64,000 nt of DNA from Candidatus Doudnabacteria bacterium (GCA_037200925.1 JBBCGO010000001.1:447698-511697); one strand, 5' to 3'. Positions 11,305 to 64,000 are shown, numbered from the stretch's first letter. Notes: generated from the letters alone by a model not told the origin. Numbers and translations: made by a program.

Positions 11305-11409
11305 TTTTTTGAAACAAAAACAGCCCCATCAGGGCTGTTCTCGTAAGAACAGATTCTAATGGGGCTTCGTAAAGCCTAAGCCACAAAGTCTCGTAAGGCC
11401 TTATGACAC

Positions 11410-12654: not shown

Positions 12655-12655
12655 A

Positions 12656-13168
12656 TTAGACTATGGTTTGCCCTAGTAAGAATCTTGCTCTCAATGTTGC
12701 CGCAGATTCTGAAACCTTAAATTGCTCTGCAACTTCCGGCAAACTAATAGCATTTTTCCAAACCCTTAAAAATAAGTCTTTAGGCATCAGTAAATCAGCC
12801 GCCATATTATTGGCTTCAATTTCGATCTTTTTTTCAGCGTCTGTTAACTCTCTGCCCTCTTCGCTATTAAGTGCCTTAACAGGTTGTTTAATATTATCAA
12901 TATGTTCATTATTTGTATCAAAAAGATGTTTATGTTGAATGAAATGAGCTATTTCGTGAGCAATTGTAAAACGCTTCCTTGTTAACGGGTGAGAAGTGTT
13001 AATGTAAATAACAAAGTTGTCGCCCTCTTTGCTCAAAGAACCAGCATAATTATCATCTAATTCGCTGGTTTCTACTACATATAGACCTAATTCTTTTGCC
13101 AAATCAACAATAGGCACAGGATTTTGCTGAGCATATTTTGCTAAGATTTGTTCGGTTTTTTGATCCAT
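12656..13168 (-). CDS. ImmA/IrrE family metallopeptidase (DUF955)
   Basis: HEIAHF (HExxH) at the expected position. Family typical of prophage/ICE regulation modules. Confidence 0.8.
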   Translation of the reverse strand: MDQKTEQILAKYAQQNPVPIVDLAKELGLYVVETSELDDNYAGSLSKEGDNFVIYINTSHPLTRKRFTIAHEIAHFIQHKHLFDTNNEHIDNIKQPVKALNSEEGRELTDAEKKIEIEANNMAADLLMPKDLFLRVWKNAISLPEVAEQFKVSESAATLRARFLLGQTIV

Positions 13169-13297
13169 ACTTTTTAGAAAATAATGCCTAATTCTATACT
13201 ACCACACCCTCTGGGTAAAGTCATTGGATAAAATGAGCCTTGCATTCTTCAATTGAAAACCTAAATTACCCAGCTTTAATTTATAGAAAATAAATTT

Positions 13298-24084: not shown

Positions 24085-24089
24085 TATGT

Positions 24090-24434
24090 TTAAGGCGAAT
24101 ATTTGAAGGGGTCGGGGTTGGTCAGCGTCAGGCCTGCGGGCTGGAAGCTGTCCAATGCATCAAGGAACTTGGAGACGTCGCTTAGTGAAGTGCGGTTGAT
24201 TCTGACAATGCTGTTATTTTCCGAGACCTGCGGCTGAGGCGATAATTTGGTGTACAGCAAAAAGTAAGCCAGGTAGGCCTCGATCAGGATCACCACGACC
24301 AGGATCAGGGTGGTAACCATGCGGATGCTGATTTTTTTGGGTAAAGCAAGTTTCATATCAGGGCTTGGGTCTCTGTACAAAAAATACGGCATTAATAGCG
24401 CCTGTAAGATCCCCCGAGTGGACGACCTCTCCAC
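24090..24434 (-). CDS. Small membrane protein in the pilus operon. Probable start at MKLALPKK, near 24357.
   Basis: TM segment TTLILVVVILIEAYLAYFLLY. Overlaps the upstream pilO-like ORF. Confidence 0.4.
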   Translation of the reverse strand: MERSSTRGILQALLMPYFLYRDPSPDMKLALPKKISIRMVTTLILVVVILIEAYLAYFLLYTKLSPQPQVSENNSIVRINRTSLSDVSKFLDALDSFQPAGLTLTNPDPFKYSP

Positions 24435-24969
24435 TGCCTGCGGTAGCGGTATCAGAGGTAGCGGCGCTGACGGTAAGTTTGCTGACCTCGGAAAAATTCG
24501 GCAGGTGCTCTATATATTGAAGGAAAGTGACCAGAGAGGTGAATGTGGATGAAATACTGACCGTGTAAGGGATCTCTTCTATGTCCGGGTTCCCCGTTAT
24601 GATCTGCTTGGCCGTGGTATCCAAGGTCTGGTCCGTCGAATTCAGGGGTTCCTGGATCGTCATCCCTTCCTCGGTATTGGATGCCAGCGCCGCGGCCTCG
24701 ACCTCCTGTATCGCCGTCTGCAGATTGTCGCGCGGCAAAATGCTGTTTTGGATCTTGTCGGTATTGGAAACCGCGCTCAGATCCGATTGGGAATTCTTAT
24801 AGGCTATGATCTGGTCCGAAAGATTATTCAGCTGCGTCTGTTTTGCTATGCCGGCATTATACAGATCGCCGACCTGATTCAAATTCGGGCGGATGAGAAA
24901 AGCAAAGATAATGACGCTGACAATAAAGCCGCCGACTGAAATTAAAATCAATTTGGTGAAAATTCTCAT
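24358..24969 (-). CDS. pilO: PilO-like pilus assembly protein
   Basis: N-terminal TM plus coiled-coil architecture. Position between pilN and the pilins. Confidence 0.55.
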   Translation of the reverse strand: MRIFTKLILISVGGFIVSVIIFAFLIRPNLNQVGDLYNAGIAKQTQLNNLSDQIIAYKNSQSDLSAVSNTDKIQNSILPRDNLQTAIQEVEAAALASNTEEGMTIQEPLNSTDQTLDTTAKQIITGNPDIEEIPYTVSISSTFTSLVTFLQYIEHLPNFSEVSKLTVSAATSDTATAGSGEVVHSGDLTGAINAVFFVQRPKP

Positions 24970-25523
24970 GGGCTGTTGATCTTGTCGTTGTTTACAAAAA
25001 AAGTAAAAGTAAAATTGGCGGTTGTGGCCCGCTCAAGGTTTGAAAGCGGAAAATTTATGCCGTGAAAAAAACCTGATTTTATTATGCTGGTCCAAAGCGC
25101 AATCACATCTTCGCGCGTTTTGGCTTGGCCCGCGATATCAACCCTCCCCGTTTCCCGGTCAAGGATTATCTGGTTCAGCTGAACAGTCGTGGGAGTCAGG
25201 TTCGCCAGAGCGATCAGGGCGTTTGACCAGTAGTAATGATGGGATTTAAGATTATTGATCTCTTTGACGCTGTTGTTCAAAGCCAAAACCTTGTCCTGCA
25301 GGCCCTTATAGTCAGCGGAATTAAGAATAGCCATGTTTTGAGCGATCTGATCGTCCGTCTGAGAATTGCTTCTCATAAGATAGATCCTGGTTCCCACCGC
25401 CAGCCCCAAAAAAACCAGCAGGCTTAGCGTAAGCCATGTCCAAAACATGAACAGCCTGCCGAACAGGAACTCAAATGTGACTTCTTTTTGCGCGTCTTGG
25501 GGCAGGAGGTTGATTATTTTCAT
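24966..25523 (-). CDS. pilN: PilN fimbrial assembly protein
   Basis: N-terminal INLLP motif plus TM. Confidence 0.7.
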   Translation of the reverse strand: MKIINLLPQDAQKEVTFEFLFGRLFMFWTWLTLSLLVFLGLAVGTRIYLMRSNSQTDDQIAQNMAILNSADYKGLQDKVLALNNSVKEINNLKSHHYYWSNALIALANLTPTTVQLNQIILDRETGRVDIAGQAKTREDVIALWTSIIKSGFFHGINFPLSNLERATTANFTFTFFVNNDKINSP

Positions 25524-26608
25524 ATGCTGTATTCGTTAAAGTTGACTCCGCGCAAAGCCAGGCCGATGACCGTGGTGTAGCCTAAGGCGGAAAGCCGGTC
25601 AAGCGGTACTGGGATCTTCGGGTCAACTGCAACATTCGCCCACGGATCGGCCAGAATGACTTTGGCCGCAGAGCGGACCGACCCGAGGTTCAGCCGGTCG
25701 GAAATATATTCGGCAATTCCGGTCAATTTAGCCGAGCCTCCGCAGAGCAGGATCGTATCAATGCTTTTGTGGGTTGTTTCGTGTTCTTCAAAGAACCTGA
25801 TGACATTTTTTATCTCATCCACGAGGTTGTCCAGGATCGGCAGGATCGCTTTGCGCACTTCCAGCCCTTTGTCGCCGGTCAAACCCAGCTCCTGTTTCAT
25901 TTTTTCGGCTTGCGGCGCCGTGACTCCGAGATTTCTGGAAATGCTTTCCGTAAACGCGTTGCCGGCGATCGGAATGCTGGAAGTGTACTGGATGATCCCG
26001 TTGTCCACGATGATAAAACTGGTCAGCTTGGTTGCCGGGTCCACGATCAAAACGCTTTTGGTCGCAAGGTCTCGGCTGATCAGAGCTCTGGCCGTCGCCT
26101 GCGACTCCAGCTCCATGGCCACCGGCACGAGTTTGGCTTTTCTAAGCGAAGAAACAAGCGCGTCTATATAATCTTTGGGAGTGGCGTGCGCCAAAACCTC
26201 AAGTTTGTCTCCCCCATCCTTGATGATCTGCCAGTCAAGGTAAACCTGGTCCACAGGCACCGGAATATCCTGTTCAAGTTCGAACGGGAGCGCGGTCCCG
26301 ATCTCGCTTTCCGCCATTTTGGGAATTGTCAGGGTGCGCACAAATGATTTGGCTTCCGGAACGGAACAGACCACGAACTTGGTGTCTATCTTGCGCGCCG
26401 CCGCAATCGCGCGGAGGATATTGTCCGCCAGCCGGTCTTCGCTGATGATCATGTGATTATTGACCACCTGTTCGGACAGCGGGGAATCGGTAAAAGGTAT
26501 TGACGCCAAACGGCCGTGCGCATAGACCAGCTGCATGACTTTGATGGAAGAATCGGAAATATCCAGGCCGAATGCTTTGATTTTTTTACTGCTCAAAAAT
26601 GAGAACAT
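25520..26608 (-). CDS. pilM: PilM actin-like pilus assembly protein
   Basis: Actin/FtsA-like fold motifs. Operon position. Confidence 0.8.
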   Translation of the reverse strand: MFSFLSSKKIKAFGLDISDSSIKVMQLVYAHGRLASIPFTDSPLSEQVVNNHMIISEDRLADNILRAIAAARKIDTKFVVCSVPEAKSFVRTLTIPKMAESEIGTALPFELEQDIPVPVDQVYLDWQIIKDGGDKLEVLAHATPKDYIDALVSSLRKAKLVPVAMELESQATARALISRDLATKSVLIVDPATKLTSFIIVDNGIIQYTSSIPIAGNAFTESISRNLGVTAPQAEKMKQELGLTGDKGLEVRKAILPILDNLVDEIKNVIRFFEEHETTHKSIDTILLCGGSAKLTGIAEYISDRLNLGSVRSAAKVILADPWANVAVDPKIPVPLDRLSALGYTTVIGLALRGVNFNEYSI

Positions 26609-26656
26609 TTTATTTCAGGATCAAACGATGACTTGTAGAAATTATAGCACTTAATA

Positions 26657-27868
26657 TTAACTTATGCTTGAACTAATATTGTAGATCGGCATGATCAAAG
26701 CCACGGCCAAAAATCCGACCGCTACCCCCATGACCATCATGATCAGCGGCTCCAGAATTGACGACAGGTTTTTCATGGTCTGGTCCACTTCCTGCTCGTA
26801 AAAATTCGCCACTTCCTCAAGCACCACGTCCGTGGTGCCCGATTCCTCCCCGACTTCCATCATCTGGATCACCAGGTTGGAAAATAATTTCGGCTCTTTT
26901 TTGAATGCCGTTGTCAAAGGAGAGCCGATCTTCACTTTTGACGCCGCATCAAGAATGGTCCGTTGGTAATAAATATTGCCGACGACGTTCGAAGAAACTT
27001 CCAGCGCCTCGACGATGGTCATGCCGCTTTTGATCAGCGATGCGAACACGCGGACAAACCTCGCCAGATTGATCTTGATCACAATGCCGGAAATCACCGG
27101 GGTATAAAGCACTAATTTGTGAAGAACTTTTTTGCCGCCCATGGTCGAGCGCCAGTAAAAAAACCCGGCCACGGCCAGAACGGTGCCCAATAAAATAAAT
27201 ATGCCGTAGTGGGCAAAAACATCGACGAGCCCGATGACGATCCTCGTCGGGAGCGGCAATACGACGTTCAGGTCCGTAAATGTCGAGGTCAGTTTCGGCA
27301 GGACAAAGGTCAGCATCAGATAGCCGACAATGGCCAAAGCGATCAGGACCATGATCGGATAGGTCAGGGCTCCCCGGGCTTTGGAAACCAGGTCATAATC
27401 CCTCTGCATCTGCTCGGCCAGATATGTCAGATTTTGTTCGAGGTTGCCCGACATTTCCCCGGCCCGCACCATGCTCACGAAAATTCCGGAAAATACATTG
27501 GGGTATTTCGCCATGGCATCGGCCAGTGAAGTGCCGCTCTCAACCTGCGCAGCAACCTCGTTCACGATCTTGGCAAACCTCGGATTGGGCGTCTGTGCGG
27601 CCAGGACCTTCAGCGACCTGGTGGCCGGAAGACCCGCCTTGATCATGACCCCGAGATTTTTGATGAACGTGATGCGGTCAATGAGTTTGATGGGGCGGAA
27701 GATCTGGAACAAATGGCCGATATCAAAAGCCTGGTGAACCGCCTTGATCGATGTCGGCAGCAGGCCCTGGGCGCGCAAAGCGTCAACCACAGCCCGTTCG
27801 TTCATGGCCTGCATTATGTCTTTTTGGATGACGCCCGCTTTATTCCGGGCGGTGTATTGGAAATCCAT
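26657..27868 (-). CDS. pilC: Type IV pilus platform protein PilC (GspF family)
   Basis: Two GspF repeats. Three TM segments. Confidence 0.85.
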   Translation of the reverse strand: MDFQYTARNKAGVIQKDIMQAMNERAVVDALRAQGLLPTSIKAVHQAFDIGHLFQIFRPIKLIDRITFIKNLGVMIKAGLPATRSLKVLAAQTPNPRFAKIVNEVAAQVESGTSLADAMAKYPNVFSGIFVSMVRAGEMSGNLEQNLTYLAEQMQRDYDLVSKARGALTYPIMVLIALAIVGYLMLTFVLPKLTSTFTDLNVVLPLPTRIVIGLVDVFAHYGIFILLGTVLAVAGFFYWRSTMGGKKVLHKLVLYTPVISGIVIKINLARFVRVFASLIKSGMTIVEALEVSSNVVGNIYYQRTILDAASKVKIGSPLTTAFKKEPKLFSNLVIQMMEVGEESGTTDVVLEEVANFYEQEVDQTMKNLSSILEPLIMMVMGVAVGFLAVALIMPIYNISSSIS

Positions 27869-27875
27869 ATCAGGA

Positions 27876-27909
27876 AATTTCTAAATTACTAAAATTCCAA
27901 GTTCTAAAT
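27876..27909 (-). promoter_or_regulatory. Conserved 34-nt element, 7 nt upstream of the pilC ATG
   Basis: aatttctaaattactaaaattccaagttctaaat (plus-strand reading). About 30/34 identical to 29732..29764 upstream of pilB. Confidence 0.5.
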
Positions 27910-27973
27910 TTTTGTTGATTAGGCATTAGTAATTTTTTAGAAATTATAATTTCAGAACTTCAGTCATTTTTTT

Positions 27974-29722
27974 TTACTCCCTGCTCACTCTCACTATCTC
28001 CTCTATCGTCGTCTTGCCTTGCAGGCATTTGATGAATCCGTCCTGCCACATCAGGATCATCCCTTCCTCCACGGCCTTTGCCTCCAGCTGGCTGGTCGGC
28101 GAGCGCTTCATGATCAGGTCCTGGACCATAGTGGAGATCTCCATCACTTCATAGATGCCCTTGCGGCCGCGGTAACCCGAATGCCCGCACTTATCGCATC
28201 CTTTTCCGTGAAAAAAAGTCAGTTCCATCAGGCCGGTTATTTTCTCGTCAATGAATTTCTCGCGCTTGAGGATGGCCAGCAGGGCCGGGACGTCATAATC
28301 TTTTTTCAGAGTTTCTTCAAGCTCCGCGTCAATTTTGATCTCTTCCTTGCAGTCGGGGCAGATCTGGCGGGTCAGGCGCTGGCCGACCACGACGTTGACC
28401 GTGGACGCGATCAGGTACGGCTCCACGCCGATATCCAAAAGCCTCGGCAAAGCTCCTGCCGCATTGTTCGTGTGCAGGGTGGATAGCACGATGTGCCCGG
28501 TCAATGCCGCGTGCACGGATTCCTCGGCGGTCTCAGCATCTCTGATTTCCCCGATCATGATGATGTTCGGGTCCTGCCGTAAGAGCGCCCGCAAACCCAT
28601 GGCAAAGGTCAGGCCGATCTTGGGACTGACCTGCGTCTGGTTGATGCCTTCTATGCGGTACTCTATCGGGTCCTCGATGGTGGCAATGTTCACACTCTTA
28701 GTATTCAGAAGCGACAGGATAGAATACAAGGTCGTGGATTTTCCGCTGCCCGTGGGCCCGGTGACCAGCAGAGCGCCATGCGGCTTCTTCACGTTCCTCA
28801 TAATGACCTCGTAATTGCGCGCGATAAATCCGAGTTCCTCCAATGTCATGGCTTTCGTGGACTCGTCGAGCAAGCGCATCACGACCTTCTCGCCGTCAAA
28901 CACGGGGATGGTGGATACGCGCAAAGAGATATTGTAATTCTCCTTCGCAACCTTGAACCGGCCGTCCTGCGGCAAACGGTGCTCGTCTATCTTGAGGTTG
29001 GCAATGACCTTGATGCGGGCGATCAGCGCCGGCTGGATGATCTTCGGCAAGGTCATGACATCATGCAGCACGCCGTCAATCCGATACCTGACCATGACCT
29101 CTTTTTCCTGCGGCTCTATATGAATGTCCGATGCTTTTTCAAATATCGCGTATTCCAGCAGAGTATCCACCACGCGGACCACGGGAATTTCCTCCGCCAT
29201 TTCTTTGAGCTTTTCCGTGACATTCTCCGTGCCGGCCGCGCCTTCTTTTTCCTGCTTGGTGATGATCTTGGCAAACTCCGCCTCAAGACTCGTGTGGTAC
29301 TGCTTCAGCCCGTAGTCCAAAGACGCTTTGCTGATGAGAAAAGGCACGATCTGCAGGTCGGTCGTCTTTTTTATGGAATCCCGGGTCTCCAGATCATCCG
29401 GGTCCGTCATGCCCACGTTCAGCTTGCCTTTCTCGCTGCCGAAAGCGATAACCTTATGCCTGCGAGCTATCGGCTCCGGCACCAAAAGCAGAACTTCTTT
29501 GGGTATCTGGCCCATGTCCGTCAGGTTCTTGTATTCCACATCGAAAAATCCGGCGATGATCATGGCCAGTTTTTCTTCGTCAATGATCTTTTTCTCAACC
29601 AGAAGGTCGTTCAGCTCGCGCCTGCCTGCCACAGCTTCTTTTTCTAAAGTTGTAAAAGCCTCAGCAGTGGTGAGTTTTTGGGCCACCAGGCTCCGCTTCA
29701 ATTGTTCTGTGTCAAAAGCCAT
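27974..29722 (-). CDS. pilB: Type IV pilus assembly ATPase PilB (GspE family)
   Basis: Walker A GPTGSGKSTT. MIGEIRD. C-terminal tetracysteine. Confidence 0.9.
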   Translation of the reverse strand: MAFDTEQLKRSLVAQKLTTAEAFTTLEKEAVAGRRELNDLLVEKKIIDEEKLAMIIAGFFDVEYKNLTDMGQIPKEVLLLVPEPIARRHKVIAFGSEKGKLNVGMTDPDDLETRDSIKKTTDLQIVPFLISKASLDYGLKQYHTSLEAEFAKIITKQEKEGAAGTENVTEKLKEMAEEIPVVRVVDTLLEYAIFEKASDIHIEPQEKEVMVRYRIDGVLHDVMTLPKIIQPALIARIKVIANLKIDEHRLPQDGRFKVAKENYNISLRVSTIPVFDGEKVVMRLLDESTKAMTLEELGFIARNYEVIMRNVKKPHGALLVTGPTGSGKSTTLYSILSLLNTKSVNIATIEDPIEYRIEGINQTQVSPKIGLTFAMGLRALLRQDPNIIMIGEIRDAETAEESVHAALTGHIVLSTLHTNNAAGALPRLLDIGVEPYLIASTVNVVVGQRLTRQICPDCKEEIKIDAELEETLKKDYDVPALLAILKREKFIDEKITGLMELTFFHGKGCDKCGHSGYRGRKGIYEVMEISTMVQDLIMKRSPTSQLEAKAVEEGMILMWQDGFIKCLQGKTTIEEIVRVSRE

Positions 29723-38708: not shown

Positions 38709-38999
38709 TTAACTCGGCATGGAAGTCCGGACGGCTTCTTTCAGATTTTTGCCGGCGCGGAACTTCGGGACCCTGGTGGCCGCGATCTGGATCTTCTGCT
38801 CCGGGTGCTGCGGATTCACGCCCATGCGGGCCGAGCGGCTGGAAACCATGAAAGCGCCGAAGCCCGAAATATTAACTTCCTGCCCGTTCTTCAGAGCATC
38901 GGTTATGACTTCCACGAATCCATGCAGGATCTTTTCCGCTTCGCTTTTGCCCACAGCCAGTTTGGCCGCCAAAGTATCTATCAATTCTTGTTTGTTCAT
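38709..38999 (-). CDS. hup: HU/IHF family DNA-binding protein
   Basis: MNKQELIDTLA...GFGAF...R.ARMGVNP....I.I.A...P.F.AGK matches the HU signature. Confidence 0.9.
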   Translation of the reverse strand: MNKQELIDTLAAKLAVGKSEAEKILHGFVEVITDALKNGQEVNISGFGAFMVSSRSARMGVNPQHPEQKIQIAATRVPKFRAGKNLKEAVRTSMPS

Positions 39000-41266
39000 A
39001 AACTTTTATTCCGCAGCATTAACTTGACTAGAATATAGCAGAAAGCCAAATTTAAGGCAAAACTGCCGGCCAAAAACCACAACCACTGCCTGCTTGTATT
39101 TACAGGCGTTGGATAGGATAAAACAGGCCCAGCGGCAACTGCGGCAATTTCGTTCGAGCCGCTGACTATGCCGGTGGAATCTGCTTGTGACTGCGAATCA
39201 ACACTTGCGACTGCAAGCCGATCTTGGCGGATCGGTTCGGAGATCGTTGAAGACGTATTAACTTTCTTAACCGGAACAGCGGCTGCAGCCAAAGCTATTT
39301 GATTGGCGGCTCCAGGGGTCAATTTGACGCTCCAGGCGTAAGTGCCGTCCGCAGTTAAATTGTAAGATTGCTCGGGAGGCGCATCCTCGTATTCCACTGC
39401 CGCCACCGAAACTTGCTTGGGATCTGTCAGGCTGACTGTTTCCTTGCCGGTATTGTTGAGCGAAATATTGCTTTCAGATTTAGGGATGACCAAATAGCCG
39501 CTTGCGGGAATTGTAACTGACAACTTATAACTTGTAGCACTGTCAGCTATCTTAAATCCTGTCAGATCCACATCTTCCGCACCCGGGTTAAATAATTCTA
39601 TGAATTCCTCCTGCTGGCTCTTTCTTAATGGTTCAGGAAAAAGTTCGTTAATGAGAATTGAGATCTGCTGCGGTTCTGGTACCGATTCGGACCGGATATT
39701 CGCGGCATTGGGCGTTGGGTCGCCCCAAACCCATTTGCCGTTCACAAAAGCGCAGCTTAGATCTTCTGCGGCATTTTCATACGCCACCGAATCGATCAAA
39801 ACATTATTTTCATTGAACAGACGTACCGTATCGGAAGTGTTATTCAGGCTGAACTTGCCTGCCGGAATGACCAGCACGGCAAAGCCTCCGGGAGAAACTA
39901 TCGGGCTTTGGATCTTGTAGCTTGATGAACCAATATCACTGCCGACCAACCCGTCATCCAGAGTCCAATTATGCAAATATACCGGCTCAGTTCCATTATT
40001 TGTAACCTCCACCCACTCCGCACCGGAATCAGGACCTGCAGGGTTGGGAAAAATTTCATTGATCTTTATCAAAGTTTGCGCAGCCGCAGTAATTCCGGTC
40101 TCGGAACTTTCTATGAATTGATTGGGCTCGCCTTTGGTCGGGAATTGTGTCCAGGCATAGATCCCGTCCGTTTTCAGAGCATAGGCAATGTCAATTTTCG
40201 CACTGTCATTGTAACTGACCTGCTTGAATAAAGTTTTACTCGGCCAAAATATTCTTAAATTATCACCTCCGGTATTATCCAGCACAAAAGCCGAGTCTGG
40301 CAGATCGATGGCCAAATAACTCTTGGCCAAAACGGAAACTCCGGCAGGAATAGTATAGGCGGAAGAGCCGATAGAGCCGTCGGCCGATTCATCATCAATG
40401 ATCCAGCCGCCCAGATCCACATCAGCGGGCGAGTTATTGTAAAGTTCCACCCACTCCGCTCCCGCATCAGGACCGTCCGGATTCGGCAGGAATTCTGAGA
40501 TCAAAATATCGGATGAATAAACCGGCATTGCCTGACCTCCGCCGCCTGACTGCTGCTGATCATCAGCCGGCGGGCTGGGCGGTGGTGGCGGTGGCGGAGG
40601 TTCAGCAGGAGGCGGTTCCGCGGGTGGCGGCTCGGCAGGCGGGGGCTCTACGGTAATTGCCGGCACAGCCGGGCTTTGTGAATTCCTCGGATGAGCGGTG
40701 GCTTGCAGAAAAAAATCAGCGGCATTGTTATTGGTATCAGCGCCATTGCCAAGGTCAGCTCCCGGCATTCGTTCCAGACTCTGATTCGCCGCAGGATTGG
40801 AAGCGAACGCCGATGCTTCCACAAATGCATTTGCCGCCAATCCCCATGCAACGCTATCAATGATGGTGCCCGTATCCTCTGCGCCACTGCGTAGCGCCAC
40901 GCCATTGTCATCCGCAATACTGCCCGTGGTCGCAACATCAGGCGTTGCCGCGATATCCGTAAAAGAAGAATTGGCCCACAAATAAAATCCATGCGGATGC
41001 ACGATCGTAGAGTCAGTCCAGGATTTCAGAGAGGTGTCAGTCGTGCCGGTCTTGGTTCTTTTTACCAGGCGCATGCCGGACAGGTCAATATCGGCTGATG
41101 TGGGATTATATATTTCCACAAAATCATTAGTGGTTTTCCCGGGCCCGCCGGTTGTCTGCACCTGGCTGATGACCAGGTGGTCCGCATCAGCAAGCGCCAG
41201 CAATGGAAAAAATAAAATACAAACGGGAGCAATCATGAAAAAAATATATCGAATTCGCTTTATCAT
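38996..41266 (-). CDS. Secreted lamin-tail-domain (LTD) protein with four LTD repeats, Pro-rich linkers and a C-terminal TM anchor
   Basis: Recurrent I[SN]E[FIL][LF]PNP...GAEWVE[LV][YT]N motifs. (EPPPA)n repeats. C-terminal hydrophobic helix. Confidence 0.8.
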   Translation of the reverse strand: MIKRIRYIFFMIAPVCILFFPLLALADADHLVISQVQTTGGPGKTTNDFVEIYNPTSADIDLSGMRLVKRTKTGTTDTSLKSWTDSTIVHPHGFYLWANSSFTDIAATPDVATTGSIADDNGVALRSGAEDTGTIIDSVAWGLAANAFVEASAFASNPAANQSLERMPGADLGNGADTNNNAADFFLQATAHPRNSQSPAVPAITVEPPPAEPPPAEPPPAEPPPPPPPPSPPADDQQQSGGGGQAMPVYSSDILISEFLPNPDGPDAGAEWVELYNNSPADVDLGGWIIDDESADGSIGSSAYTIPAGVSVLAKSYLAIDLPDSAFVLDNTGGDNLRIFWPSKTLFKQVSYNDSAKIDIAYALKTDGIYAWTQFPTKGEPNQFIESSETGITAAAQTLIKINEIFPNPAGPDSGAEWVEVTNNGTEPVYLHNWTLDDGLVGSDIGSSSYKIQSPIVSPGGFAVLVIPAGKFSLNNTSDTVRLFNENNVLIDSVAYENAAEDLSCAFVNGKWVWGDPTPNAANIRSESVPEPQQISILINELFPEPLRKSQQEEFIELFNPGAEDVDLTGFKIADSATSYKLSVTIPASGYLVIPKSESNISLNNTGKETVSLTDPKQVSVAAVEYEDAPPEQSYNLTADGTYAWSVKLTPGAANQIALAAAAVPVKKVNTSSTISEPIRQDRLAVASVDSQSQADSTGIVSGSNEIAAVAAGPVLSYPTPVNTSRQWLWFLAGSFALNLAFCYILVKLMLRNKSL

Positions 41267-57684: not shown

Positions 57685-59406
57685 TTAACCCACCGACTCT
57701 TGTGGCGCTGGATGCTTACGGGAATTTTCCACGCTAAGCAGAGCCATGGCTTTTTCCGGACCCCAGAGCTGGGCGATCGATTTGAGGAAACGGATCATCC
57801 GCTTTTGCTGATCGTTGCTCACATCATCCTTGACCAGCTCGAGCTGCTGCGCGCCGATGCTGTGAAGCTGAAATCTCCGGCTGTATCCTTCGAGCCTCAC
57901 TTCGAAGAACGAATCGGCCCTCAGTTTGACGGAATTCTCCATGCAGAATCCGTAGATCCAGTCCTGATTGGCCTTCGAGACCAGTCCATTACTGATCAAG
58001 TTTCGGAACTGGAGTATGGATGTCCACTCCACGACTTCAGGCAAGTTGGGCTTGACCAAGTCGCTGAGCACTCCCGCTTCTCCGGCGGCGCTGATACAAA
58101 CCGGGTCGTCGGAGTTCATTCCTGAAATCCATCTCTGGAAGCTGATCGGACCGACGGTAACACGCACAGGTGTCGTTGGTTGCGGTGGAACCGCCCTAAG
58201 GTGAACGGGTTCTCGATGAAACTCTTCTTCTGACGGCGCCTCAATAGGCTTAACGGTGATTCCGACCCGAGTCTCTGTGGGCTCCTCTTCTTCGTCCTCG
58301 TATCCTTCGGTATACTCATCGGGCATGACCAGGGTTGGAGTCTTCCACAAGACTTCCTGAGGTTTGAACACTTGGCCATCCTTAGGGGCGGCACAGAACA
58401 TGCCGGCGATCTCGGCCGGCGGGTTTGTAAATTCCGTACCGGTAAAGATCGGTTTGTAGTCCAGCATGTTCTTTTCGCCGCGGGCGATCACCGCGATCTG
58501 CTTTCGAAAACCTTTCGTGGTATCCTGATTCATTGGTCCAAGGTTCGTGATGATCGCCCGACCAATGTGGCCCTCAAAATCATAGTACGGATTCTCGATC
58601 ACTTCTCGAGCTCCCTTAATGATCAGGCTCTCCCGATCAGGAGATTTTTCCATCTCGGGAGTCCAGATGGTGCGACCCACCTTGAAGTTGCCGCCGCCGC
58701 TCATGACGCGAAGCGTGTCCTTGCCGTCAGCTTCTCGGCCCTGGATGAAGGTGTAGAACATAGTAATCAGGCCCCTGACAGCGGCCCGATTCAGCTCTTT
58801 CCACGCCTTTTTTTTGGGCATCTTGAGTGCGTAGGCCGTGGCATTGTTGATCACGAGACAACGAACGTTCTTCTCTGCCAATCTCGTTAGGGTGTCGATC
58901 GCGAAATTGTACTGCTCTTTCGACACCTCTTCGATATCGGGAAAGACCACGATCGCGACGGTGAACATCTTGAGGCTAAGAGCCAAATCGCAACATGGTT
59001 CCAACCCGCCCGCCGCCGTGCCTTTGTTCAGCGAACCGGTGATCAACGCGGTGTCGTAGGGCCGCAGAATTGCCGAGACCTTGTCTTTCGCTTTCTCGAA
59101 AGCTTCCCGCCCGGCTTTCGGATCGTGTCCACTCCCCTCGCCATCGCCGATCACGAGTGAACGGCCTTCGGGTGCGAACGCAACCTCAGCCTTGAGCGTG
59201 TCAATGAAGAAGATGTCAAGAAACGACCTGACGAGTGTCGAGTACCAGATTTTGTCAGCAGGAAATTCCTTGCCTTCCGCTTTTTTCCTAGCTCGAATCA
59301 GATCTTCGACTCTCTCGGTCTCAGCAGCGTTGGCGGAGATTGTTTTCCCGAAATCCTTGCCAATACTTACCCCGCAACCTCCAAGGCTCAGCATCACTGG
59401 CTTCAC
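57685..59406 (-). CDS. Divergent FtsZ/tubulin-family GTPase with a degenerate signature motif and a ~250-aa C-terminal extension
   Basis: LSLGGCGVSIG (G-box). LVIGDGEGSGHDPKAGREAFE (T3-like). LITGSLNKGTAAGGLEPCCDLA in place of GGGTGTG. Confidence 0.65.
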   Translation of the reverse strand: MKPVMLSLGGCGVSIGKDFGKTISANAAETERVEDLIRARKKAEGKEFPADKIWYSTLVRSFLDIFFIDTLKAEVAFAPEGRSLVIGDGEGSGHDPKAGREAFEKAKDKVSAILRPYDTALITGSLNKGTAAGGLEPCCDLALSLKMFTVAIVVFPDIEEVSKEQYNFAIDTLTRLAEKNVRCLVINNATAYALKMPKKKAWKELNRAAVRGLITMFYTFIQGREADGKDTLRVMSGGGNFKVGRTIWTPEMEKSPDRESLIIKGAREVIENPYYDFEGHIGRAIITNLGPMNQDTTKGFRKQIAVIARGEKNMLDYKPIFTGTEFTNPPAEIAGMFCAAPKDGQVFKPQEVLWKTPTLVMPDEYTEGYEDEEEEPTETRVGITVKPIEAPSEEEFHREPVHLRAVPPQPTTPVRVTVGPISFQRWISGMNSDDPVCISAAGEAGVLSDLVKPNLPEVVEWTSILQFRNLISNGLVSKANQDWIYGFCMENSVKLRADSFFEVRLEGYSRRFQLHSIGAQQLELVKDDVSNDQQKRMIRFLKSIAQLWGPEKAMALLSVENSRKHPAPQESVG

Positions 59407-60662
59407 AGATCACCTCCGGCGTGCACAAAGGGCACACAAACACCCGGTTTATCGTCAACGAAAGGCTCCTTGAACGTAAACGGCTCATTAGGGAACGTTT
59501 CGTTGAATTTAGCTAAATCACAGTCAAGATCAACCTTGTGGTTGGTGAGATTCGGATAGTTGCCTTTCTGGGGCACGATCCGAATTACTCCCTTTCCGTT
59601 CCAAGGCAAGTATTCAGGCAAAATCTCAACCGAGTTGGCGTTTGCGTTCAGGTAGTGCTTAAAGAACATCTCGAACCTCGAGACAAATTCTTGTACGCGC
59701 CCCTTCAACTCCCGAAGCTCTTCCAGCCGTATATCTGCTAAGCCCGCTTGAAGCGCATTGTCTGCTCTTGCTTTCTTGATGTACAAGTGCCAGGCAATAC
59801 CCAGGACGATAACCCCGACTATTGCTGCTGCGGCTATTATGTAGATGAGTGCTGTTGGCGGAGAAGAATTCGATGATGATGAAGCCGCCTGATCTGCTGC
59901 GACTGCTGCTGGCTGATCTGCTGCGACTGCTGCTGGCTGATCTGCTGCGGCTGTGGCTGCTGATGGAGGTTTATCTGGAGGCTTATCTGCTGCTGACGCT
60001 GGTGTTACACGCGGAGCAGCGACTGCTGGTGGCGGAACCGGCACCTCCGCAGGTGCGGGTGCAGCAGGAGCCTTGGTCGGTTGCGGCGTTTCAACTTTCG
60101 CCACGACTGGCACCTGAACTGGAACCTGGGCAGAAACCGTAGAAGCAGCCAACATTCCCGGCAACGCGTAAACGTCGTCGGTCAAAGTCTTGGACAAGCG
60201 CGACGCGATGTCACGCTTGGACATCTTTGACGTGATGTTGCCGTTGAGCAAAGCCAACTTTTGCGCGCAGCGAAGATCCGAAGATCCTTTGCACACTTGC
60301 GCGAAAGTCTTGCCTGCGGAACCTTTTACCGGTTCCGTCTTTGCCAAGTCGGTCTTGATGCGCACTTCCCAACCGGGATATACCACACCAAGCTCTTCCT
60401 TCGGCCTAACCCTGCCCGTGTCCTTTCCGTTCACAATAATAGCAACAACAATTCCGTCTTTCAGGTAATTGTTGCTGCCGGTGAGCTTCAGCACGATCTT
60501 GCTGACATTCTCACCCTTTTTGATCACGTGCGTGACGTAATCAGCGGCCGAGCACAAGCTCGGGAACAACAGACAAACTACCGCGAAAAACAAACGAAAC
60601 TTAGTCACCATTCCAACATCCTCCGTAGATCTGAGAAGAACTGCGATTTTATAATATACCAA
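59403..60662 (-). CDS. LysM-domain membrane protein with an Ala/Pro-rich tandem repeat
   Basis: LysM-like DYVTHVIKKGENVSKIV...VYPGWEVRI. TM segment. 4-nt overlap with the upstream FtsZ-like gene. Confidence 0.6.
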   Translation of the reverse strand: MVYYKIAVLLRSTEDVGMVTKFRLFFAVVCLLFPSLCSAADYVTHVIKKGENVSKIVLKLTGSNNYLKDGIVVAIIVNGKDTGRVRPKEELGVVYPGWEVRIKTDLAKTEPVKGSAGKTFAQVCKGSSDLRCAQKLALLNGNITSKMSKRDIASRLSKTLTDDVYALPGMLAASTVSAQVPVQVPVVAKVETPQPTKAPAAPAPAEVPVPPPAVAAPRVTPASAADKPPDKPPSAATAAADQPAAVAADQPAAVAADQAASSSSNSSPPTALIYIIAAAAIVGVIVLGIAWHLYIKKARADNALQAGLADIRLEELRELKGRVQEFVSRFEMFFKHYLNANANSVEILPEYLPWNGKGVIRIVPQKGNYPNLTNHKVDLDCDLAKFNETFPNEPFTFKEPFVDDKPGVCVPFVHAGGDL

Positions 60663-60711
60663 TATTTGCTGACTAAGTCAATAGTAAAAACCGACCACTG
60701 CCCTGGCCGAG

Positions 60712-60933
60712 TTATAATTCGATTTCAATCAGTTTATGAGCGCTTTTATATCCTGAACGGATGCGGATTTTAGATGGCGAAGTATTAAAGTGATCAGCCA
60801 AAAGATCGATCACGGCATTATTGGCCTGGTTATCAGCGGGCGGAACCGTGACCCAAACTTTATATTCTTCCAAGCCTAATTGTTCGATCCGCTCGCTTGA
60901 GGCTCTCGTTTGTACTTTAACGCGAATGACCAT
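60712..60933 (-). CDS. DUF167 (YggU/UPF0235) protein (start at MVIRVKV)
   Basis: VKVQTRASSERIEQL...VWVTVPPADNQANNAVIDLLA....IRSG. Confidence 0.6.
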   Translation of the reverse strand: MVIRVKVQTRASSERIEQLGLEEYKVWVTVPPADNQANNAVIDLLADHFNTSPSKIRIRSGYKSAHKLIEIEL

Positions 60934-61397
60934 ATCAATTCGTATGCTCCGAATAATACTCCGACATAAAACAGATCTCCTAACAATGTATTTCCAAAAA
61001 ACGGAATGGCATTCGTATAAGATGCGATCTGTCCGGCCCAGGTATGCGGATACATTTTCGTGGAATAGAACAGCACGCAATTGGTGATCAGATAAAATAA
61101 TGTTGAACCCAGCAAAGATCCGCCGACTACAGTAAAAACATTTTTGTGGTTGCGAATATATAGGCCGATCAAACCAATGAGGAGGAAACTGCCGTAAATC
61201 ACCAGCCGCGACTGCAGAGAATCAAATCCGATAAAAATATCAGAAATAAACATAGCCGCCAGCGGCAGGAGCAAAGCGTATCTTTTTTTCAGATAAACCC
61301 CGCCGAACAAAGCAGTCGCGCCGATCGGCGCAAAGTTGGCAGGGTGAGGAATCACGCGCAACAGTGCGCCGAAAAAGATAAAGAAATATGGTAGCAT
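60876..61397 (-). CDS. Polytopic membrane protein (possibly an ECF-type substrate-binding component)
   Basis: Five predicted TM segments. Adjacent to a DUF4430 gene. Confidence 0.45.
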   Translation of the reverse strand: MLPYFFIFFGALLRVIPHPANFAPIGATALFGGVYLKKRYALLLPLAAMFISDIFIGFDSLQSRLVIYGSFLLIGLIGLYIRNHKNVFTVVGGSLLGSTLFYLITNCVLFYSTKMYPHTWAGQIASYTNAIPFFGNTLLGDLFYVGVLFGAYELIWSFALKYKREPQASGSNN

Positions 61398-61874
61398 TTA
61401 TTTTGTGGTATCTACGACCGCGTCAATTTCCCATTTAATATTATCTGTAGATTTTGTGATGTAAGCGGATGCTCCCAGTTGCGAAAAACTCCCGTTCACG
61501 TACATGGCCCAGAAATGCTGTGCATCCGGCGTGATCCCGTCAATGCCCGTCACCAGATCCCCAAACGAATAATGCTTGGCGTCCACTTTATGATCGGCTT
61601 CCAAAAGCTCTAAGGCATTTTTTCCGTCTTGTCCCTGATATTCAACAACGCTGCTGGGTACTTGAACTTGTTGTTGTGTTTGACCGCCGGCCGCAGGATT
61701 AACCGAAGCTTGGCCCGTGGATGGAATATTGAGATCCTGGTTGGTCAGAGCAACATTGGGGTTATTTGTGGTTGGGGCCAAAACCGGCTGTTGCTTAAAA
61801 GCATAAATAATACCGATGAAGGCAATAACTGTGACAATAACGAATATTTCAAGTTTTCTTCCCAGATTATTCAT
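61398..61874 (-). CDS. DUF4430-like secreted protein
   Basis: N-terminal TM. C-terminal FGDLVTGIDGI......FWAMYVNG...LGASAY pattern. Confidence 0.5.
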   Translation of the reverse strand: MNNLGRKLEIFVIVTVIAFIGIIYAFKQQPVLAPTTNNPNVALTNQDLNIPSTGQASVNPAAGGQTQQQVQVPSSVVEYQGQDGKNALELLEADHKVDAKHYSFGDLVTGIDGITPDAQHFWAMYVNGSFSQLGASAYITKSTDNIKWEIDAVVDTTK

Positions 61875-61971
61875 TGTATAGGATTAATTTTGCATAACAA
61901 TTTTAGCAGATGACGCTCATTTTTGTAAATCATATATAGATTGTCATTCCCGCGAAAGCGGGAATCCAGTT

Positions 61972-62259
61972 CTAAAGCAAATTTTGATACAAATCTTGCC
62001 ATTTAGGGTTAAACTTTTCAATCAGTTCTAATTTCCACTTTCGGTTCCATTTCTTCAGTTGTTTTTCTCTTTTGATTGCACTTTCAACATCAGGAGTTTC
62101 TTCATAATAAACTAAAGTATTCACATCGTATTTTTTTGTAAAGCCTTTTACGGATTTTTGTTTATGTTGATAAACTCGTTTAATCAAATCTCTCGTAATT
62201 CCAATGTACAGAGTTCCGTTTCGCTTACTGTCTAAAATATAAACAAAATATGATTTCAT
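61972..62259 (-). CDS. GIY-YIG nuclease family protein (YhbQ-like)
   Basis: YFVYILDSKRNGTLYIGITRDL..R..QH. Confidence 0.8.
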   Translation of the reverse strand: MKSYFVYILDSKRNGTLYIGITRDLIKRVYQHKQKSVKGFTKKYDVNTLVYYEETPDVESAIKREKQLKKWNRKWKLELIEKFNPKWQDLYQNLL

Positions 62260-62301
62260 AGTTCTGGATCCCCGATTAGGTCGGGGATGACAGCTTCGCT
62301 G

Positions 62302-62829
62302 TCAGTAGTCAATGCCCCGCAGTGCGAGGATGCCTTGATAATATGGATGCTTTATCATCTTCATCTCAGTCACCAGATCAGCCATATCGATCAATTTTTT
62401 GAACTGTTTATGCCCGGTCAGGCAGAGGTGAGTTTCTGCAGGTTTGGATCTGATGATCTTGGCAACATCATCAACTGTCAGAAGTTTGGATTCAATTGCT
62501 GAGATGGCCTCATCCAAGATCACCAAGTCATATTTTTTTGATTTGAGGGCTTTAATCGATTCTTTCATGGCGTCTTTGGCCGCTTTAATATGTTCCTGGA
62601 TGGGCTTGCGATCTCCCAGGATGCCGACAAAGCCCCGGCCCATCAATTTCACGTCCACATTCTTAAGCTTGCTCAGAACTTCGCGCTCGCCCGAAGGCCA
62701 GTCGCCTTTCACGAACTGCAAATACAAAACCTTAAAGCCGGTGCCGGCTGCTCGGACCGCAAGTCCGGCAGCAGCAGAAGTTTTTCCTTTGCCGTTGCCG
62801 ATATAAATTATTGTAAGGCCTTTGGTCAT
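62302..62829 (-). CDS. cobO: Cob(I)alamin adenosyltransferase (CobO/BtuR type)
   Basis: IYIGNGKGKTSAAAGLAVRAAGTGFKVLYLQFVKG. Confidence 0.85.
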   Translation of the reverse strand: MTKGLTIIYIGNGKGKTSAAAGLAVRAAGTGFKVLYLQFVKGDWPSGEREVLSKLKNVDVKLMGRGFVGILGDRKPIQEHIKAAKDAMKESIKALKSKKYDLVILDEAISAIESKLLTVDDVAKIIRSKPAETHLCLTGHKQFKKLIDMADLVTEMKMIKHPYYQGILALRGIDY

Positions 62830-62872
62830 TGTTTCAAAAGACGGCGGATGTCCGCCGCCTTTTTTATAATCT

Positions 62873-63094
62873 TTATTCTTGTACCTTAGGTTCGTTTGAA
62901 GCTTCCAGTTTCTCTTTCAGCTTCGCGATGCTTCTATCGAGCGCAGCTATGTCGGCAGGGCTCATCCCGGGCTCTGTCTTGGCTTTTTCAAGCCCTGCGA
63001 TCCTATGCGGAAGATTGTCCCCAAATCCATTTTTGGGAACACCCTCTTCTCTCTTATAGCCTCTGGGAGCTTGTTTATGATTGTGTGAGTCCAT
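62873..63094 (-). CDS. Hypothetical small protein
   Basis: ORF only. Confidence 0.3.
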   Translation of the reverse strand: MDSHNHKQAPRGYKREEGVPKNGFGDNLPHRIAGLEKAKTEPGMSPADIAALDRSIAKLKEKLEASNEPKVQE

Positions 63095-63097
63095 AAA

Positions 63098-64000
63098 TTA
63101 GCATTTGCTGAATCCGCACATTTCGCATTTGGAACATCCTTCAGCCAAAACCATCATGTTCCCGCATTCAGGACATGCCGGAGCCAAGCCGCTGTTCGCA
63201 ATTGAAGTTTTTTGCGTCACAAATGTGCTGCCAACCTCATGCACTTGGCGCGTCACAGCCTGGAACACAGGTTCCCGGTCAACTTTCGGGATCTCAAGTT
63301 GCTTAAAATCCAGCTGCAGTTCTTTTTGTCCGCGCTTCAGATGATTTTCCAAAACATTCGCGATCGCATCAGGCAAAGAAAGTATCCGTTCGCCGTTATG
63401 GAACATGGGATCAGGGCCGCGAATGCCTTTCAATTGTTCTACCACGTTTTGCAAACTGATGCCGGAACGCAGGGCCAAAGAGATCATGCGGCAGATGGCC
63501 TCGGTCTGGGCGCCGAAGAAGCCTCCGGCCTTGCCAAGCTGGGAAAAAACCTCGAAAGGTCCGTATTCGTCTTCATTGACCGTGACATACAAATTACCGT
63601 ACGCGGTCGGGACTTTGTAGGTCGACCCTTCCATGACATCCGGCCTTTTTCGCGGAGAAATATTTCCCATTTGTGGTGAAGTCGGCATTTGTGGATGAGG
63701 TTCAGTTGCTGGCATGGGAGCAGGCATAGGTTCCGGCATTGGCTGCGGCGCGGGAGCCGGTTCAGGCTCATTCTGCATTTTTATACGCAGGTCCTCTATA
63801 GCTTTTTCGTTTTGCTGCGCAACCACCTGATCGCTGGCGTCTTTGCCAAGCTTGGTATGGTCAGTGGCCAATATCTGCTCGTCGCGTGAGCCGTCGCGGT
63901 AGATCGTGCCGCCTTTGCAGCCAAGGTCATACATCAGTTCATAAAGTTTTTTCGTCTGCTCTATCGTATATTCTTCCGGCGCGTTCACGGTTTTGGAGAT
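63098..64000 (-). CDS. nrdJ: C-terminal part of an adenosylcobalamin-dependent (class II) ribonucleotide reductase. The ORF is open to the window end.
   Basis: DLGCKGGTIYRDGSRDEQIL. C-terminal zinc ribbon CPECGNMMVLAEGCSKCEMCGFSKC. Confidence 0.65.
   Translation of the reverse strand: MSKTVNAPEEYTIEQTKKLYELMYDLGCKGGTIYRDGSRDEQILATDHTKLGKDASDQVVAQQNEKAIEDLRIKMQNEPEPAPAPQPMPEPMPAPMPATEPHPQMPTSPQMGNISPRKRPDVMEGSTYKVPTAYGNLYVTVNEDEYGPFEVFSQLGKAGGFFGAQTEAICRMISLALRSGISLQNVVEQLKGIRGPDPMFHNGERILSLPDAIANVLENHLKRGQKELQLDFKQLEIPKVDREPVFQAVTRQVHEVGSTFVTQKTSIANSGLAPACPECGNMMVLAEGCSKCEMCGFSKC

Follow-up and report, generated by a model that had tools for sequence, protein, structure and literature searches.

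We analysed a 64,000-nucleotide stretch of a Candidatus Doudnabacteria genome (GCA_037200925.1, JBBCGO010000001.1:447698-511697; hereafter, the window), in which two adjacent minus-strand genes encode a divergent FtsZ-like protein of 573 amino acids and, directly upstream of it, a predicted bitopic membrane protein. The two genes form one operon-like unit. The FtsZ-like protein belongs to a distinct, evidently FtsZ-derived family, which is marked by an invariant lysine in the T4 loop (the 'tubulin signature' region) and by a new C-terminal domain. In nearly every locus examined, in two phyla, a predicted bitopic partner is tightly coupled to the FtsZ-like gene, and Doudnabacteria lineages have evidently exchanged divergent alleles of the two-gene cassette at a single fixed locus. 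The pair may encode an accessory, membrane-tethered FtsZ-family filament system and not the housekeeping division FtsZ, a reading to which we give a probability of about one half. The FtsZ/tubulin superfamily itself is known; new would be this family within it and the type of partner.

The FtsZ-like protein and its family

A preliminary description of this DNA, made by eye, had aligned the 573-residue protein with FtsZ, and profile searches bear this out. Residues 4-192 match the Pfam Tubulin domain (PF00091) with 48.9 bits against a cut-off of 33, and the closest solved structures by sequence are FtsZs (best E 2e-10); in the alignment to a solved FtsZ, ITGSLNKGTAAGG of the FtsZ-like protein stands opposite ITCGLGGGTGTGS. 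Tubulin_2 (PF13809) gave no match at E<=1 in Pfam, and the score against the NCBIfam FtsZ equivalog model TIGR00065, 42.8 bits, is below the cut-off of 295.2. These results support the assignment of the protein as a divergent putative GTPase of the FtsZ superfamily with a degenerate signature and a C-terminal extension. Its database entry (MEJ0021521.1) derives from a Candidatus Doudnabacteria metagenome-assembled genome (GCA_037975565.1, contig JBBCBH010000057.1 of 964,444 bp).

An AlphaFold2 (AF2) model of the protein, built on 16 family sequences, has an overall predicted local distance difference test score (pLDDT) of 80.8, and residues 1-345 are well modelled (pLDDT mostly 80-97). Foldseek aligned about 350 columns of this model with FtsZ chains of the PDB (E 1e-17, target-normalised template-modelling score about 0.8), and both FtsZ subdomains are therefore present. 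Alignment of the family profile with E. coli FtsZ, whose sequence was entered by hand, by hhalign gave a probability of 98.8% (E 5e-17) over 298 columns covering FtsZ residues 9-316.

A hallmark residue is kept in each of the nucleotide-contacting loops (G9/G12, D69-T70, G91-S92, T130, E160 and N188). In the 16-member alignment the invariant positions are G9 and G12 (T1), T70 (T2), G91 (T3), K128 and T130 (T4), E160 (T5), N188 (T6), and D227 and D230 (T7), and the window protein retains all of them. D227 and D230, the same in 16/16 members, lie opposite the two T7 aspartates of FtsZ, which activate GTP hydrolysis across the longitudinal polymer interface.

The preliminary description had read the tubulin signature as SLNKGTAAGG and called it degenerate. 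This sequence, residues 125-134, indeed aligns with GLGGGTGTGS of M. jannaschii FtsZ, and K128 aligns with the second glycine of the E. coli GGGTGTG. The canonical patterns [SAG]GGTG[SA]G and GGGTG[ST]G are not matched, as the protein has NKGTAAG. The degeneracy is real, but its lysine is a family trait: the family signature reads G-K-[GSAN]-T-G-x-[GAN], with lysine in place of the second glycine of GGGTGTG in every member. Only N127, A131 and A132, and the changes in T1, are specific to the sub-clade of the window protein, which has GGCGVS in T1 where relatives have GGGGGN, and NKGTAAG in T4 where they have GGKGTGAG. N127 and the alanine pair at 131-132 are peculiar to the window protein and its relative P0002, while other members have a single alanine at either site. 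The weakened T1 and T4 loops suggest that nucleotide handling may be altered in this sub-clade.

The C-terminal extension that had been claimed also holds up in the AF2 model. A Glu/Pro-rich linker, modelled as disordered (pLDDT below 50 over residues 363-418), leads into a helical domain that is modelled confidently (residues 420-556, pLDDT about 82-93) and is kept across the family, as judged from alignments and from profile coverage up to about position 530. This domain had no significant match in Pfam or among PDB sequences; hints in it of a winged-helix-like element (eS10) were weak and non-significant (E 0.7). The model contains no coiled coil. The window protein ends with this 135-residue helical domain followed by ...SRKHPAPQESVG, without the short conserved C-terminal peptide of the FtsZ type. 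Several relatives (P0003-P0005, P0009, P0040, P0056 and P0073) end in motifs such as LLQTFRH, FLQPFRN or AFRGLGKGGRRK after the helical domain. Judged only by eye, such endings, among them FRH or AFRG with a basic tail, are reminiscent of the C-terminal peptide of FtsZ and the basic tail behind it.

A word-index search with the protein found only five clusters. A hidden Markov model (HMM) run over the full set of 1.84 billion representatives raised this to 93 clusters with E<=1e-30, of which many are fragments (clusters were defined at 50% identity). Full-length members have 545-649 residues, and their match to the profile extends through the C-terminal domain. Neighbour joining on 328 core columns placed the family apart from the FtsZ outgroups and grouped the window protein, P0002 and P0022 at 100% bootstrap. 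Scanning of GTDB representative genomes, a set that does not include the genome of the window, yielded 25 loci at species level; every one is from Acidobacteriota, and for most the label is Vicinamibacterales. Metagenome scans returned two loci only with the alignment of the P0056 clade and nothing with that of the window clade. By tblastn there were no relatives in 50,697 phage or 72,556 plasmid records, none were found in IMG/VR, and PADLOC-DB 2.0 HMMs matched neither protein nor their relatives; a phage, plasmid or defence origin is rejected on these grounds. The family has no dedicated entry in Pfam, NCBIfam or PADLOC, and we found no description of it in the literature that could be searched.

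The membrane partner, the locus and its alleles

Both open reading frames (ORFs) of the preliminary description exist, namely 57685..59406 (-), 573 residues with a GTG start, and 59403..60662 (-), 419 residues as the longest ORF. The partner most likely starts at ATG 60611 and not at 60662: a GGAGG lies 9 nt 5' of this ATG, the NCBI gene call likewise gives 402 residues, and TTG 60662 falls between the two hexamers of a promoter-like site. Such sites were not enriched over shuffled sequence (5 found, 3.3 expected), so that the site is a candidate only. A terminator-like hairpin further upstream is, by consensus match only, a candidate for marking the 5' boundary of the pair's transcription unit. 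The 4-nt overlap that had been reported between the genes is there, but in the reverse order, the membrane-protein gene being upstream and its TGA (59405-59403) overlapping the GTG (59406-59404) of the FtsZ-like gene. The junction reads CTGTGA and a GGAGG lies 6 nt upstream of the GTG; overlap and GGAGG together suggest that the two genes may be translationally coupled.

The partner had been described as a LysM protein with a transmembrane helix. It is, by prediction, a membrane protein with an extracytoplasmic domain, but the LysM part fared less well: neither Pfam (PF01476, E<=1) nor Foldseek gave a match, and only the first half of the motif was recovered, by hhalign, in ectodomain 1 (93.7% probability over the first 24 columns only, against six LysM sequences entered by hand). 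Ectodomain 2 scored 2.3% in the same comparison. The secondary structure of the ectodomain in the AF2 model is compatible with the beta-alpha-alpha-beta order of LysM. This model, which used database homologues and is of only moderate confidence, agrees with the predicted topology (pLDDT 61.7 overall, 80-86 in ectodomain 2, 67-80 in the cytoplasmic domain); Foldseek found nothing significant with it (best E 0.07, unrelated). A split beta-alpha-beta fold, S24e-like or ZipA-like, was considered for the cytoplasmic domain and set aside as it lacked statistical support. The AADQPAAV repeats noticed earlier are real, with two perfect copies of the peptide and one degenerate.

Nearly every locus with readable upstream sequence, about 35 loci in all from Doudnabacteria-like genomes, other genomes and Vicinamibacterales, has an upstream partner. 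It lies immediately upstream (-4 to +1 nt) in the window, in loci L004/L005, L034/L035, L037, L036 and L038/L039, in the contig encoding P0040, and in most of the 27 Vicinamibacterales loci. In most of the 25 loci from GTDB genomes it is an ORF of about 260-290 residues that ends 4 nt inside the start of the FtsZ-like gene; the 4-nt overlap is found in 18/25 Vicinamibacterales GTDB loci and in L003, L004, L036 and L038 (ATGA), and the spacing is -1 to +1 nt in L034, L037 and the P0040 contig. An HMM made from 23 Vicinamibacterales partners finds the partner of the window (E 2e-9, next decoy 0.2), and the match spans ectodomain and cytoplasmic domain. Across the compared loci we found no third gene at a conserved position.

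The surroundings of the pair differ between lineages. In Vicinamibacterales the flanks are variable. In L036 the pair and two other GC-rich genes lie between fusA and tuf of the str/S10 ribosomal operon; this GC-rich block (L036 3909-9707), in a small-genome-like bacterium, consists of the pair, a 571-residue protein without a Pfam match and an RRM_1 protein. In L039 (889-4135) the pair follows mreB on the same strand at a distance of 137 nt (Pfam MreB, E 8.5e-120), and in L038 (107-2472), from the same metagenomic lineage, the junction is ATGA with a GGAGG 6 nt upstream.

Five Doudnabacteria-like genomes carry the pair at one site, between a PF1765-like gene and hisS. The gene order is CobO, DUF4430, DUF6580, PF1765-like, then partner and FtsZ-like gene, then 0-3 small ORFs, hisS and comEC; in the window, PF1765-like, DUF6580, DUF4430 and CobO lie on one side and hisS, comEC, a peptidyl-prolyl isomerase and ndk on the other. 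Shared by five genomes, this site shows the pair to be old in the clade rather than inserted once and recently. Neither integrase nor replication genes are found beside it. Genes of the division and cell wall (dcw) cluster (ftsA, ftsQ, mur) were absent from the neighbours and from the large ORFs scanned across the 64 kb, so that the pair lacks the dcw-like context which the preliminary description had named in its ground for refutation; a six-frame search of the window found no canonical tubulin signature.

We compared the divergence of the pair with that of its flanks. Between the window and L034 the flanking genes are 83-93% identical (CobO 89%, DUF6580 83%, HisRS 90%, ribonucleotide reductase 93%) with synonymous divergence (dS) of 0.92-1.19, whereas the FtsZ-like proteins are 28% identical (dS 2.0) and the partners 39% (dS 3.2), dS being saturated here. 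Between the window and L004 the relation is inverted: the flanks (DUF4430 66%, DUF6580 77% identity) have dS of 1.6-2.4, whereas the FtsZ-like proteins are 81% identical (dS 0.67) and the partners 61%. The pair thus disagrees with its flanks in both directions, higher in L034 and lower in L004, and it follows that cassette alleles have been exchanged. Along the partner, dS between the window and L004 is highest in the signal peptide (2.65) and then decreases through ectodomains 1 (1.42) and 2 (0.65) to the cytoplasmic domain (0.44), although the segments are short and the values noisy. A breakpoint of recombination within the partner's 5' part would agree with this gradient. The tract of low dS covers the partner from ectodomain 2 up to and including the cytoplasmic domain, as well as all of the FtsZ-like gene, and the 5' end of the partner (dS 1.4-2.7) and the flanks are older than this tract. 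The parts that we propose to interact, the cytoplasmic domain of the partner and the FtsZ-like protein, appear to have been inherited together. Between the window and L034 the FtsZ-like protein's C-terminal domain is 41% identical and the core only 21%.

The ratio of non-synonymous to synonymous divergence (dN/dS) between the window and L004 is 0.17 for the FtsZ-like gene (core 0.16, C-terminal domain 0.18) and 0.25-0.59 along the partner, with 0.25 in the cytoplasmic domain. These values indicate that the genes are functional and show both to be under purifying selection. The ratios for ectodomain and linker, 0.31-0.59, are higher than those of the flanks, 0.06-0.16.

The preliminary description had taken the GC content of the pair as a sign of horizontal acquisition. 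This content, 0.533, does exceed that of the immediate flanks; the mean of the window is 0.465 (standard deviation 0.045), and the pair stands at the 98th percentile of equal-sized windows. It is not unique in this, however, because SAICAR synthase, NDK and GroEL of the same genome have a third-codon-position GC content (GC3) of 0.66-0.68, the same as the pair. These native genes and the locus kept in five genomes rule out a recent one-off transfer deduced from GC alone; what survives of the claim is movement as allele exchange of the same cassette. The GC3 of the FtsZ-like gene is 0.65-0.72 in L002, L004, L034, L036 and L037, whatever that of the flanks, which ranges over 0.34-0.58 (L037 0.34-0.41, L036 0.46-0.53, window 0.44-0.58). 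A shared gene pool, biased gene conversion and codon selection are candidate causes of this constancy.

The surroundings of the cassette hold further small genes. Between the FtsZ-like gene and hisS there are ORFs of 147, 69 and 29 residues in L034 (11954-12760), ORFs of 130 and 216 residues with weak domain hints only in L037 (9182-10312), and none in the window, so the 3' side of the cassette is variable too. A 95-residue GIY-YIG ORF at 61972-62259 of the window is, unlike its neighbours, very poor in GC (0.295; GC3 0.27), and the P0040 contig has a GIY-YIG ORF beside hisS; the one in the window could be a mobile endonuclease close to the exchange-prone locus. Upstream, in the window (60712-63988) and in L002, L034 and L037, lie conserved genes for NrdR/ATP-cone, a TSCPD-domain ribonucleotide reductase, CobO (corrinoid adenosyltransferase), DUF4430 and DUF6580. 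From their domain names alone these look like a cluster for B12-dependent ribonucleotide reductase and for cobalamin salvage and uptake.

Relation to known systems and possible roles

The pair can be compared first with FtsZ and its membrane-associated partners FtsA, ZipA and SepF. Like FtsZ, the family has the two-subdomain core, loops T1-T7 at equivalent sites, the T7 aspartates and a disordered linker after the core, and a gene for a membrane-associated protein lies directly upstream, as ftsA does to ftsZ. Unlike FtsZ, it fails TIGR00065, has the invariant lysine at the second glycine of GGGTGTG, ends in a globular helical domain of about 135 residues and not in a short C-terminal peptide, lies in a non-dcw context and has horizontally exchanged alleles. 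The partner resembles ZipA in being bitopic with a Pro/Ala-rich linker, but has the opposite topology (N-terminus out, C-terminus in) and folded extracytoplasmic domains.

Divergent relatives of FtsZ have been described before. FtsZl2 (type protein PFL_1302) has all T-loops and a C-terminal region of a few hundred residues without known homologues (Makarova & Koonin 2010, PMC2875224). It shares with our family the membership of the FtsZ superfamily, an insert between T1 and T4, all T-loops, a C-terminal region of no known homology, and even a Cys-Gly in T1 (GLGRCGSN). However, FtsZl2 has SAGGGTGSG, about 700-735 residues, an occurrence in Proteobacteria only and no conserved neighbour, whereas the present family has its upstream partner. 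Membership of FtsZl2 was rejected, as hhalign gave 10% over 25 columns against PFL_1302 (its sequence rebuilt from the paper's supplement) and 98.8% over 298 columns against E. coli FtsZ. FtsZl1 (Tubulin_2, PF13809) is likewise a divergent prokaryotic tubulin-superfamily protein with membrane-associated operon partners, for which a role in membrane remodelling, or else in conflict systems (PMC7159879), was proposed. FtsZl1 has a long coiled coil and no recognisable T6-H7-T7 or FtsZ C-terminal subdomain, whereas our family has the full core; with no PF13809 match at E<=1, no coiled coil and no vWA, GTPase, kinase or OmpA neighbours, FtsZl1 membership was rejected as well.

For bacteria of the candidate phyla radiation (CPR), Santana-Molina et al. 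(2023, PMC9871819) reported that canonical ftsZ lies in the dcw cluster and that some genomes have further, divergent copies. These second copies resemble our family in occurring in CPR, in being detected by PF00091, and in being highly divergent and outside the canonical group. These copies could be members of our family; their motifs, domains, partners and loci are not described in the paper. The sentence about them is the only candidate for an earlier mention of the family that we came across.

The partner also brings to mind membrane proteins of the YneA and ChiZ type, which cross the membrane once, carry a LysM-type domain outside the cytoplasm and are functionally linked to FtsZ-dependent division. 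Those proteins, however, are small inhibitors induced by the SOS response, their LysM domain is a true one, and they are not known to be encoded with an FtsZ paralogue. The partner described here has only a half-motif resemblance to LysM, plus a conserved cytoplasmic domain.

Of the two possibilities that the preliminary description had raised, an unusual division FtsZ or an accessory module, an accessory, envelope-associated one fits best. We favour an accessory role over that of the division gene because the protein scores 42.8 bits against the 295 of TIGR00065 and because dcw genes were absent from the 64 kb; the context is B12-related genes and hisS here, and fusA/tuf or mreB elsewhere. 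In such an accessory filament system the partner would be made in step with the FtsZ-like protein, and its cytoplasmic domain would bind the latter's C-terminal domain, thereby tethering GTP-dependent filaments to the membrane. The filaments of the sub-clade with weakened T1 and T4 loops might hydrolyse slowly. The ectodomain of the partner would contact the cell wall or another glycan. The arrangement would be parallel to ftsA-ftsZ or ZipA/FtsZ, with an anchor that reaches through the membrane, and might serve envelope organisation, shape, or a specialised step of division or attachment.

Several points weigh against this reading. T1 (GGCGVS) and T4 (NKGTAAG) are degraded relative to other members, so that GTP binding may be weak or lost, and the core of the syntenic L034 allele is too diverged for Pfam detection. 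The mreB neighbourhood is seen in a single lineage only. 'Cell-wall binding' is a guess, the assignment of the ectodomain to LysM being weak. The exchange of deeply divergent alleles, together with the constant GC3, would be unusual for a housekeeping cytoskeleton and a better fit to conflict-type selection.

This last point leads to the possibility, which we consider tentative and on balance unlikely, of a conflict or sensor-effector module. The partner would then be a transmembrane sensor with a variable ectodomain and the FtsZ-like protein a cytoplasmic effector, which upon phage attack, contact with a host or competitor, or wall damage would polymerise, or co-assemble with resident FtsZ and poison it, leading to division arrest or exclusion of the invader; frequency-dependent selection and horizontal exchange would uphold the diversity. 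Such a module would be in keeping with the discordance between pair and flanks in both directions (L034, L004), with a GC3 of 0.65-0.72 regardless of flanks at 0.34-0.58, and with the raised dN/dS of ectodomain and linker (0.31-0.59 versus 0.06-0.16). The patchy distribution across phyla, the variable Vicinamibacterales flanks and the insertion inside the str/S10 operon (L036) point the same way, and a part in conflict systems has been proposed for proteins of the tubulin superfamily (PMC7159879). However, a defence hotspot would alternate systems, and in 5/5 Doudnabacteria-like genomes the locus holds the same type of module. PADLOC matched neither protein nor the relatives; neither protein has a nuclease, a protease or another of the classic effector domains; phage, plasmid and IMG/VR searches found no relatives; and dN/dS is well under 1 everywhere.

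We hold about as doubtful an 'outside-in' version, in which a horizontally traded and diversifying system would pass a surface cue, be it phage, contact with a host cell or neighbour, or wall damage, from a variable extracellular sensor domain through the transmembrane helix directly to the assembly or disassembly of a dedicated FtsZ-derived polymer, a tubulin-superfamily effector for conflict or partner recognition in episymbiotic CPR. On that account the Vicinamibacterales copy would have come by inter-phylum transfer.

It is improbable that the protein is the working division FtsZ of its lineage, having taken the place of canonical FtsZ in highly derived form and with a dedicated transmembrane anchor for FtsA. 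The complete core with its T7 aspartates, the anchor-like gene directly upstream in the manner of ftsA and ftsZ, the conservation of the locus in the clade, the purifying selection on both genes and the lack of a canonical ftsZ within the 64-kb window would all agree with it. This lack, however, says little, because the window amounts to about 7% of the 964-kb contig, and the score falls far short of the 295-bit equivalog cut-off in a neighbourhood that is not dcw-like. Nor is an essential protein expected to be swapped for alleles of 27-28% identity while HisRS is 90% identical. The family also occurs in Vicinamibacterales, and free-living Acidobacteriota are expected to carry a normal dcw ftsZ. 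Finally, canonical dcw-linked ftsZ is reported across CPR, with the divergent copies as extras (PMC9871819).

Less credible still is that a plasmid or prophage left behind a DNA-segregation tubulin of the TubZ/PhuZ type. The kind of protein, a divergent one of the tubulin superfamily with a small partner gene beside it, the evidence of horizontal movement and the non-significant winged-helix-like hint in the C-terminal domain (eS10) speak for it. The partner, however, is predicted to be a secreted or bitopic membrane protein and not a TubR-like DNA-binding adaptor; the tblastn searches of phage and plasmid records and IMG/VR gave no match, and integrase or replication genes do not flank the pair. 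The model is also closer to cellular FtsZ than to phage FtsZ or PhuZ-type tubulins (E 6e-13 or weaker, template-modelling score 0.5-0.6). A decaying or non-functional foreign patch, a GC-rich insertion with a dead GTPase, is equally hard to credit: the degenerate T1 and T4 motifs, the GC excess over the immediate flanks and an L034 allele no longer detectable by Pfam would suit it, but every genome seen has intact ORFs, dN/dS is 0.17-0.37, all family-invariant residues are kept in the window protein, and locus and coupled gene arrangement are conserved across two phyla.

If the pair is an accessory filament system, it would join the FtsZ paralogues with new jobs (CetZ, TubZ, PhuZ, FtsZl1/2), each of which opened a part of prokaryotic cell biology. 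Its features make it tractable in experiments: a full core with an invariant lysine for a signature glycine, a new globular tail, a dedicated transmembrane partner that has extracytoplasmic domains, and a size of two genes. It is found in CPR bacteria, about whose division and attachment to hosts hardly anything is known, and in a common soil order of acidobacteria. Swapped, deeply divergent alleles with a base composition of their own are not expected of a cytoskeletal gene, and raise the question of what selects for diversity.

Feature coordinates and the rest of the window

Table 1. Features of the FtsZ-like gene, its partner and their junction (nucleotide positions in the window; aa, residues of the respective protein; TM, transmembrane).
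Feature	Position	Strand	Basis or remark
FtsZ-like gene, 573 aa, GTG start	57685..59406	-	MEJ0021521.1, annotated 'hypothetical protein'
Complete FtsZ core (aa 1-345): GTPase domain, helix H7, C-terminal activation subdomain	58372..59406	-	Foldseek, hhalign, AF2
T1 loop LGGCGVS (aa 8-14); relatives GGGGGN; G9 and G12 family-invariant	59365..59385	-	alignment
T4 'tubulin signature' region SLNKGTAAGG (aa 125-134); K128 and T130 family-invariant	59005..59034	-	alignment
T7 (synergy) loop READGKD (aa 224-230); D227 and D230 family-invariant	58717..58737	-	alignment
Glu/Pro-rich linker (aa 346-418); length varies across family	58153..58371	-	AF2, composition
Family-specific, mainly helical C-terminal domain (aa 419-556)	57739..58152	-	AF2, family conservation
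Partner gene, 402 aa, predicted type-I bitopic membrane protein	59403..60611	-	ATG 60611, GGAGG 60625-60621
Partner signal peptide	aa 1-23		topology
Partner ectodomain 1 (half-LysM-like)	aa 24-90
Partner ectodomain 2, beta-alpha-alpha-alpha-beta, two conserved Cys	aa 91-155
Partner Ala/Pro-rich extracytoplasmic linker	aa 156-250
Partner TM helix, then KKAR (inside)	aa 254-277
Partner cytoplasmic beta-beta-alpha-beta-beta domain (~115 aa), YPNLxxH motif	aa 286-402
24-nt tandem repeat, 3.2 copies	59889..59964	-	AADQPAAV / AADQPAAV / AADQAASS in extracytoplasmic linker
GTGA junction: partner TGA (59405-59403) over FtsZ-like GTG (59406-59404)	59403..59406	-
Sigma-70-like promoter candidate: TTGACT, 17-nt spacer, TATATT, extended-10 TG	60653..60681	-	10/12 consensus matches
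Terminator-like hairpin, 7-pair stem and TTTTT, directly after TAA of upstream PF1765-like gene	60691..60710	-	consensus match only

Away from the pair, positions 1-13200 of the window form a low-GC block (0.36-0.42, versus 0.45-0.55 further along). It encodes a Fic/DOC protein (1130-2182), an ADP-ribosylglycohydrolase (2415-3371), a DUF2779 protein (3373-4485) and a 1519-residue SF1-type helicase with a Top1 zinc ribbon (4967-9526), and has the look of an island of conflict or mobile genes. At 21655-29722 there is a cluster of type IV pilus genes, comprising PilB (T2SSE), PilC (T2SSF), PilM, a PilN-like protein and an 809-residue pilin-like protein in which the N-terminal methylation motif is fused to an Ice_binding-like domain. 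At 38996-41266 the window encodes a protein of 756 residues with four Lamin Tail Domain repeats.

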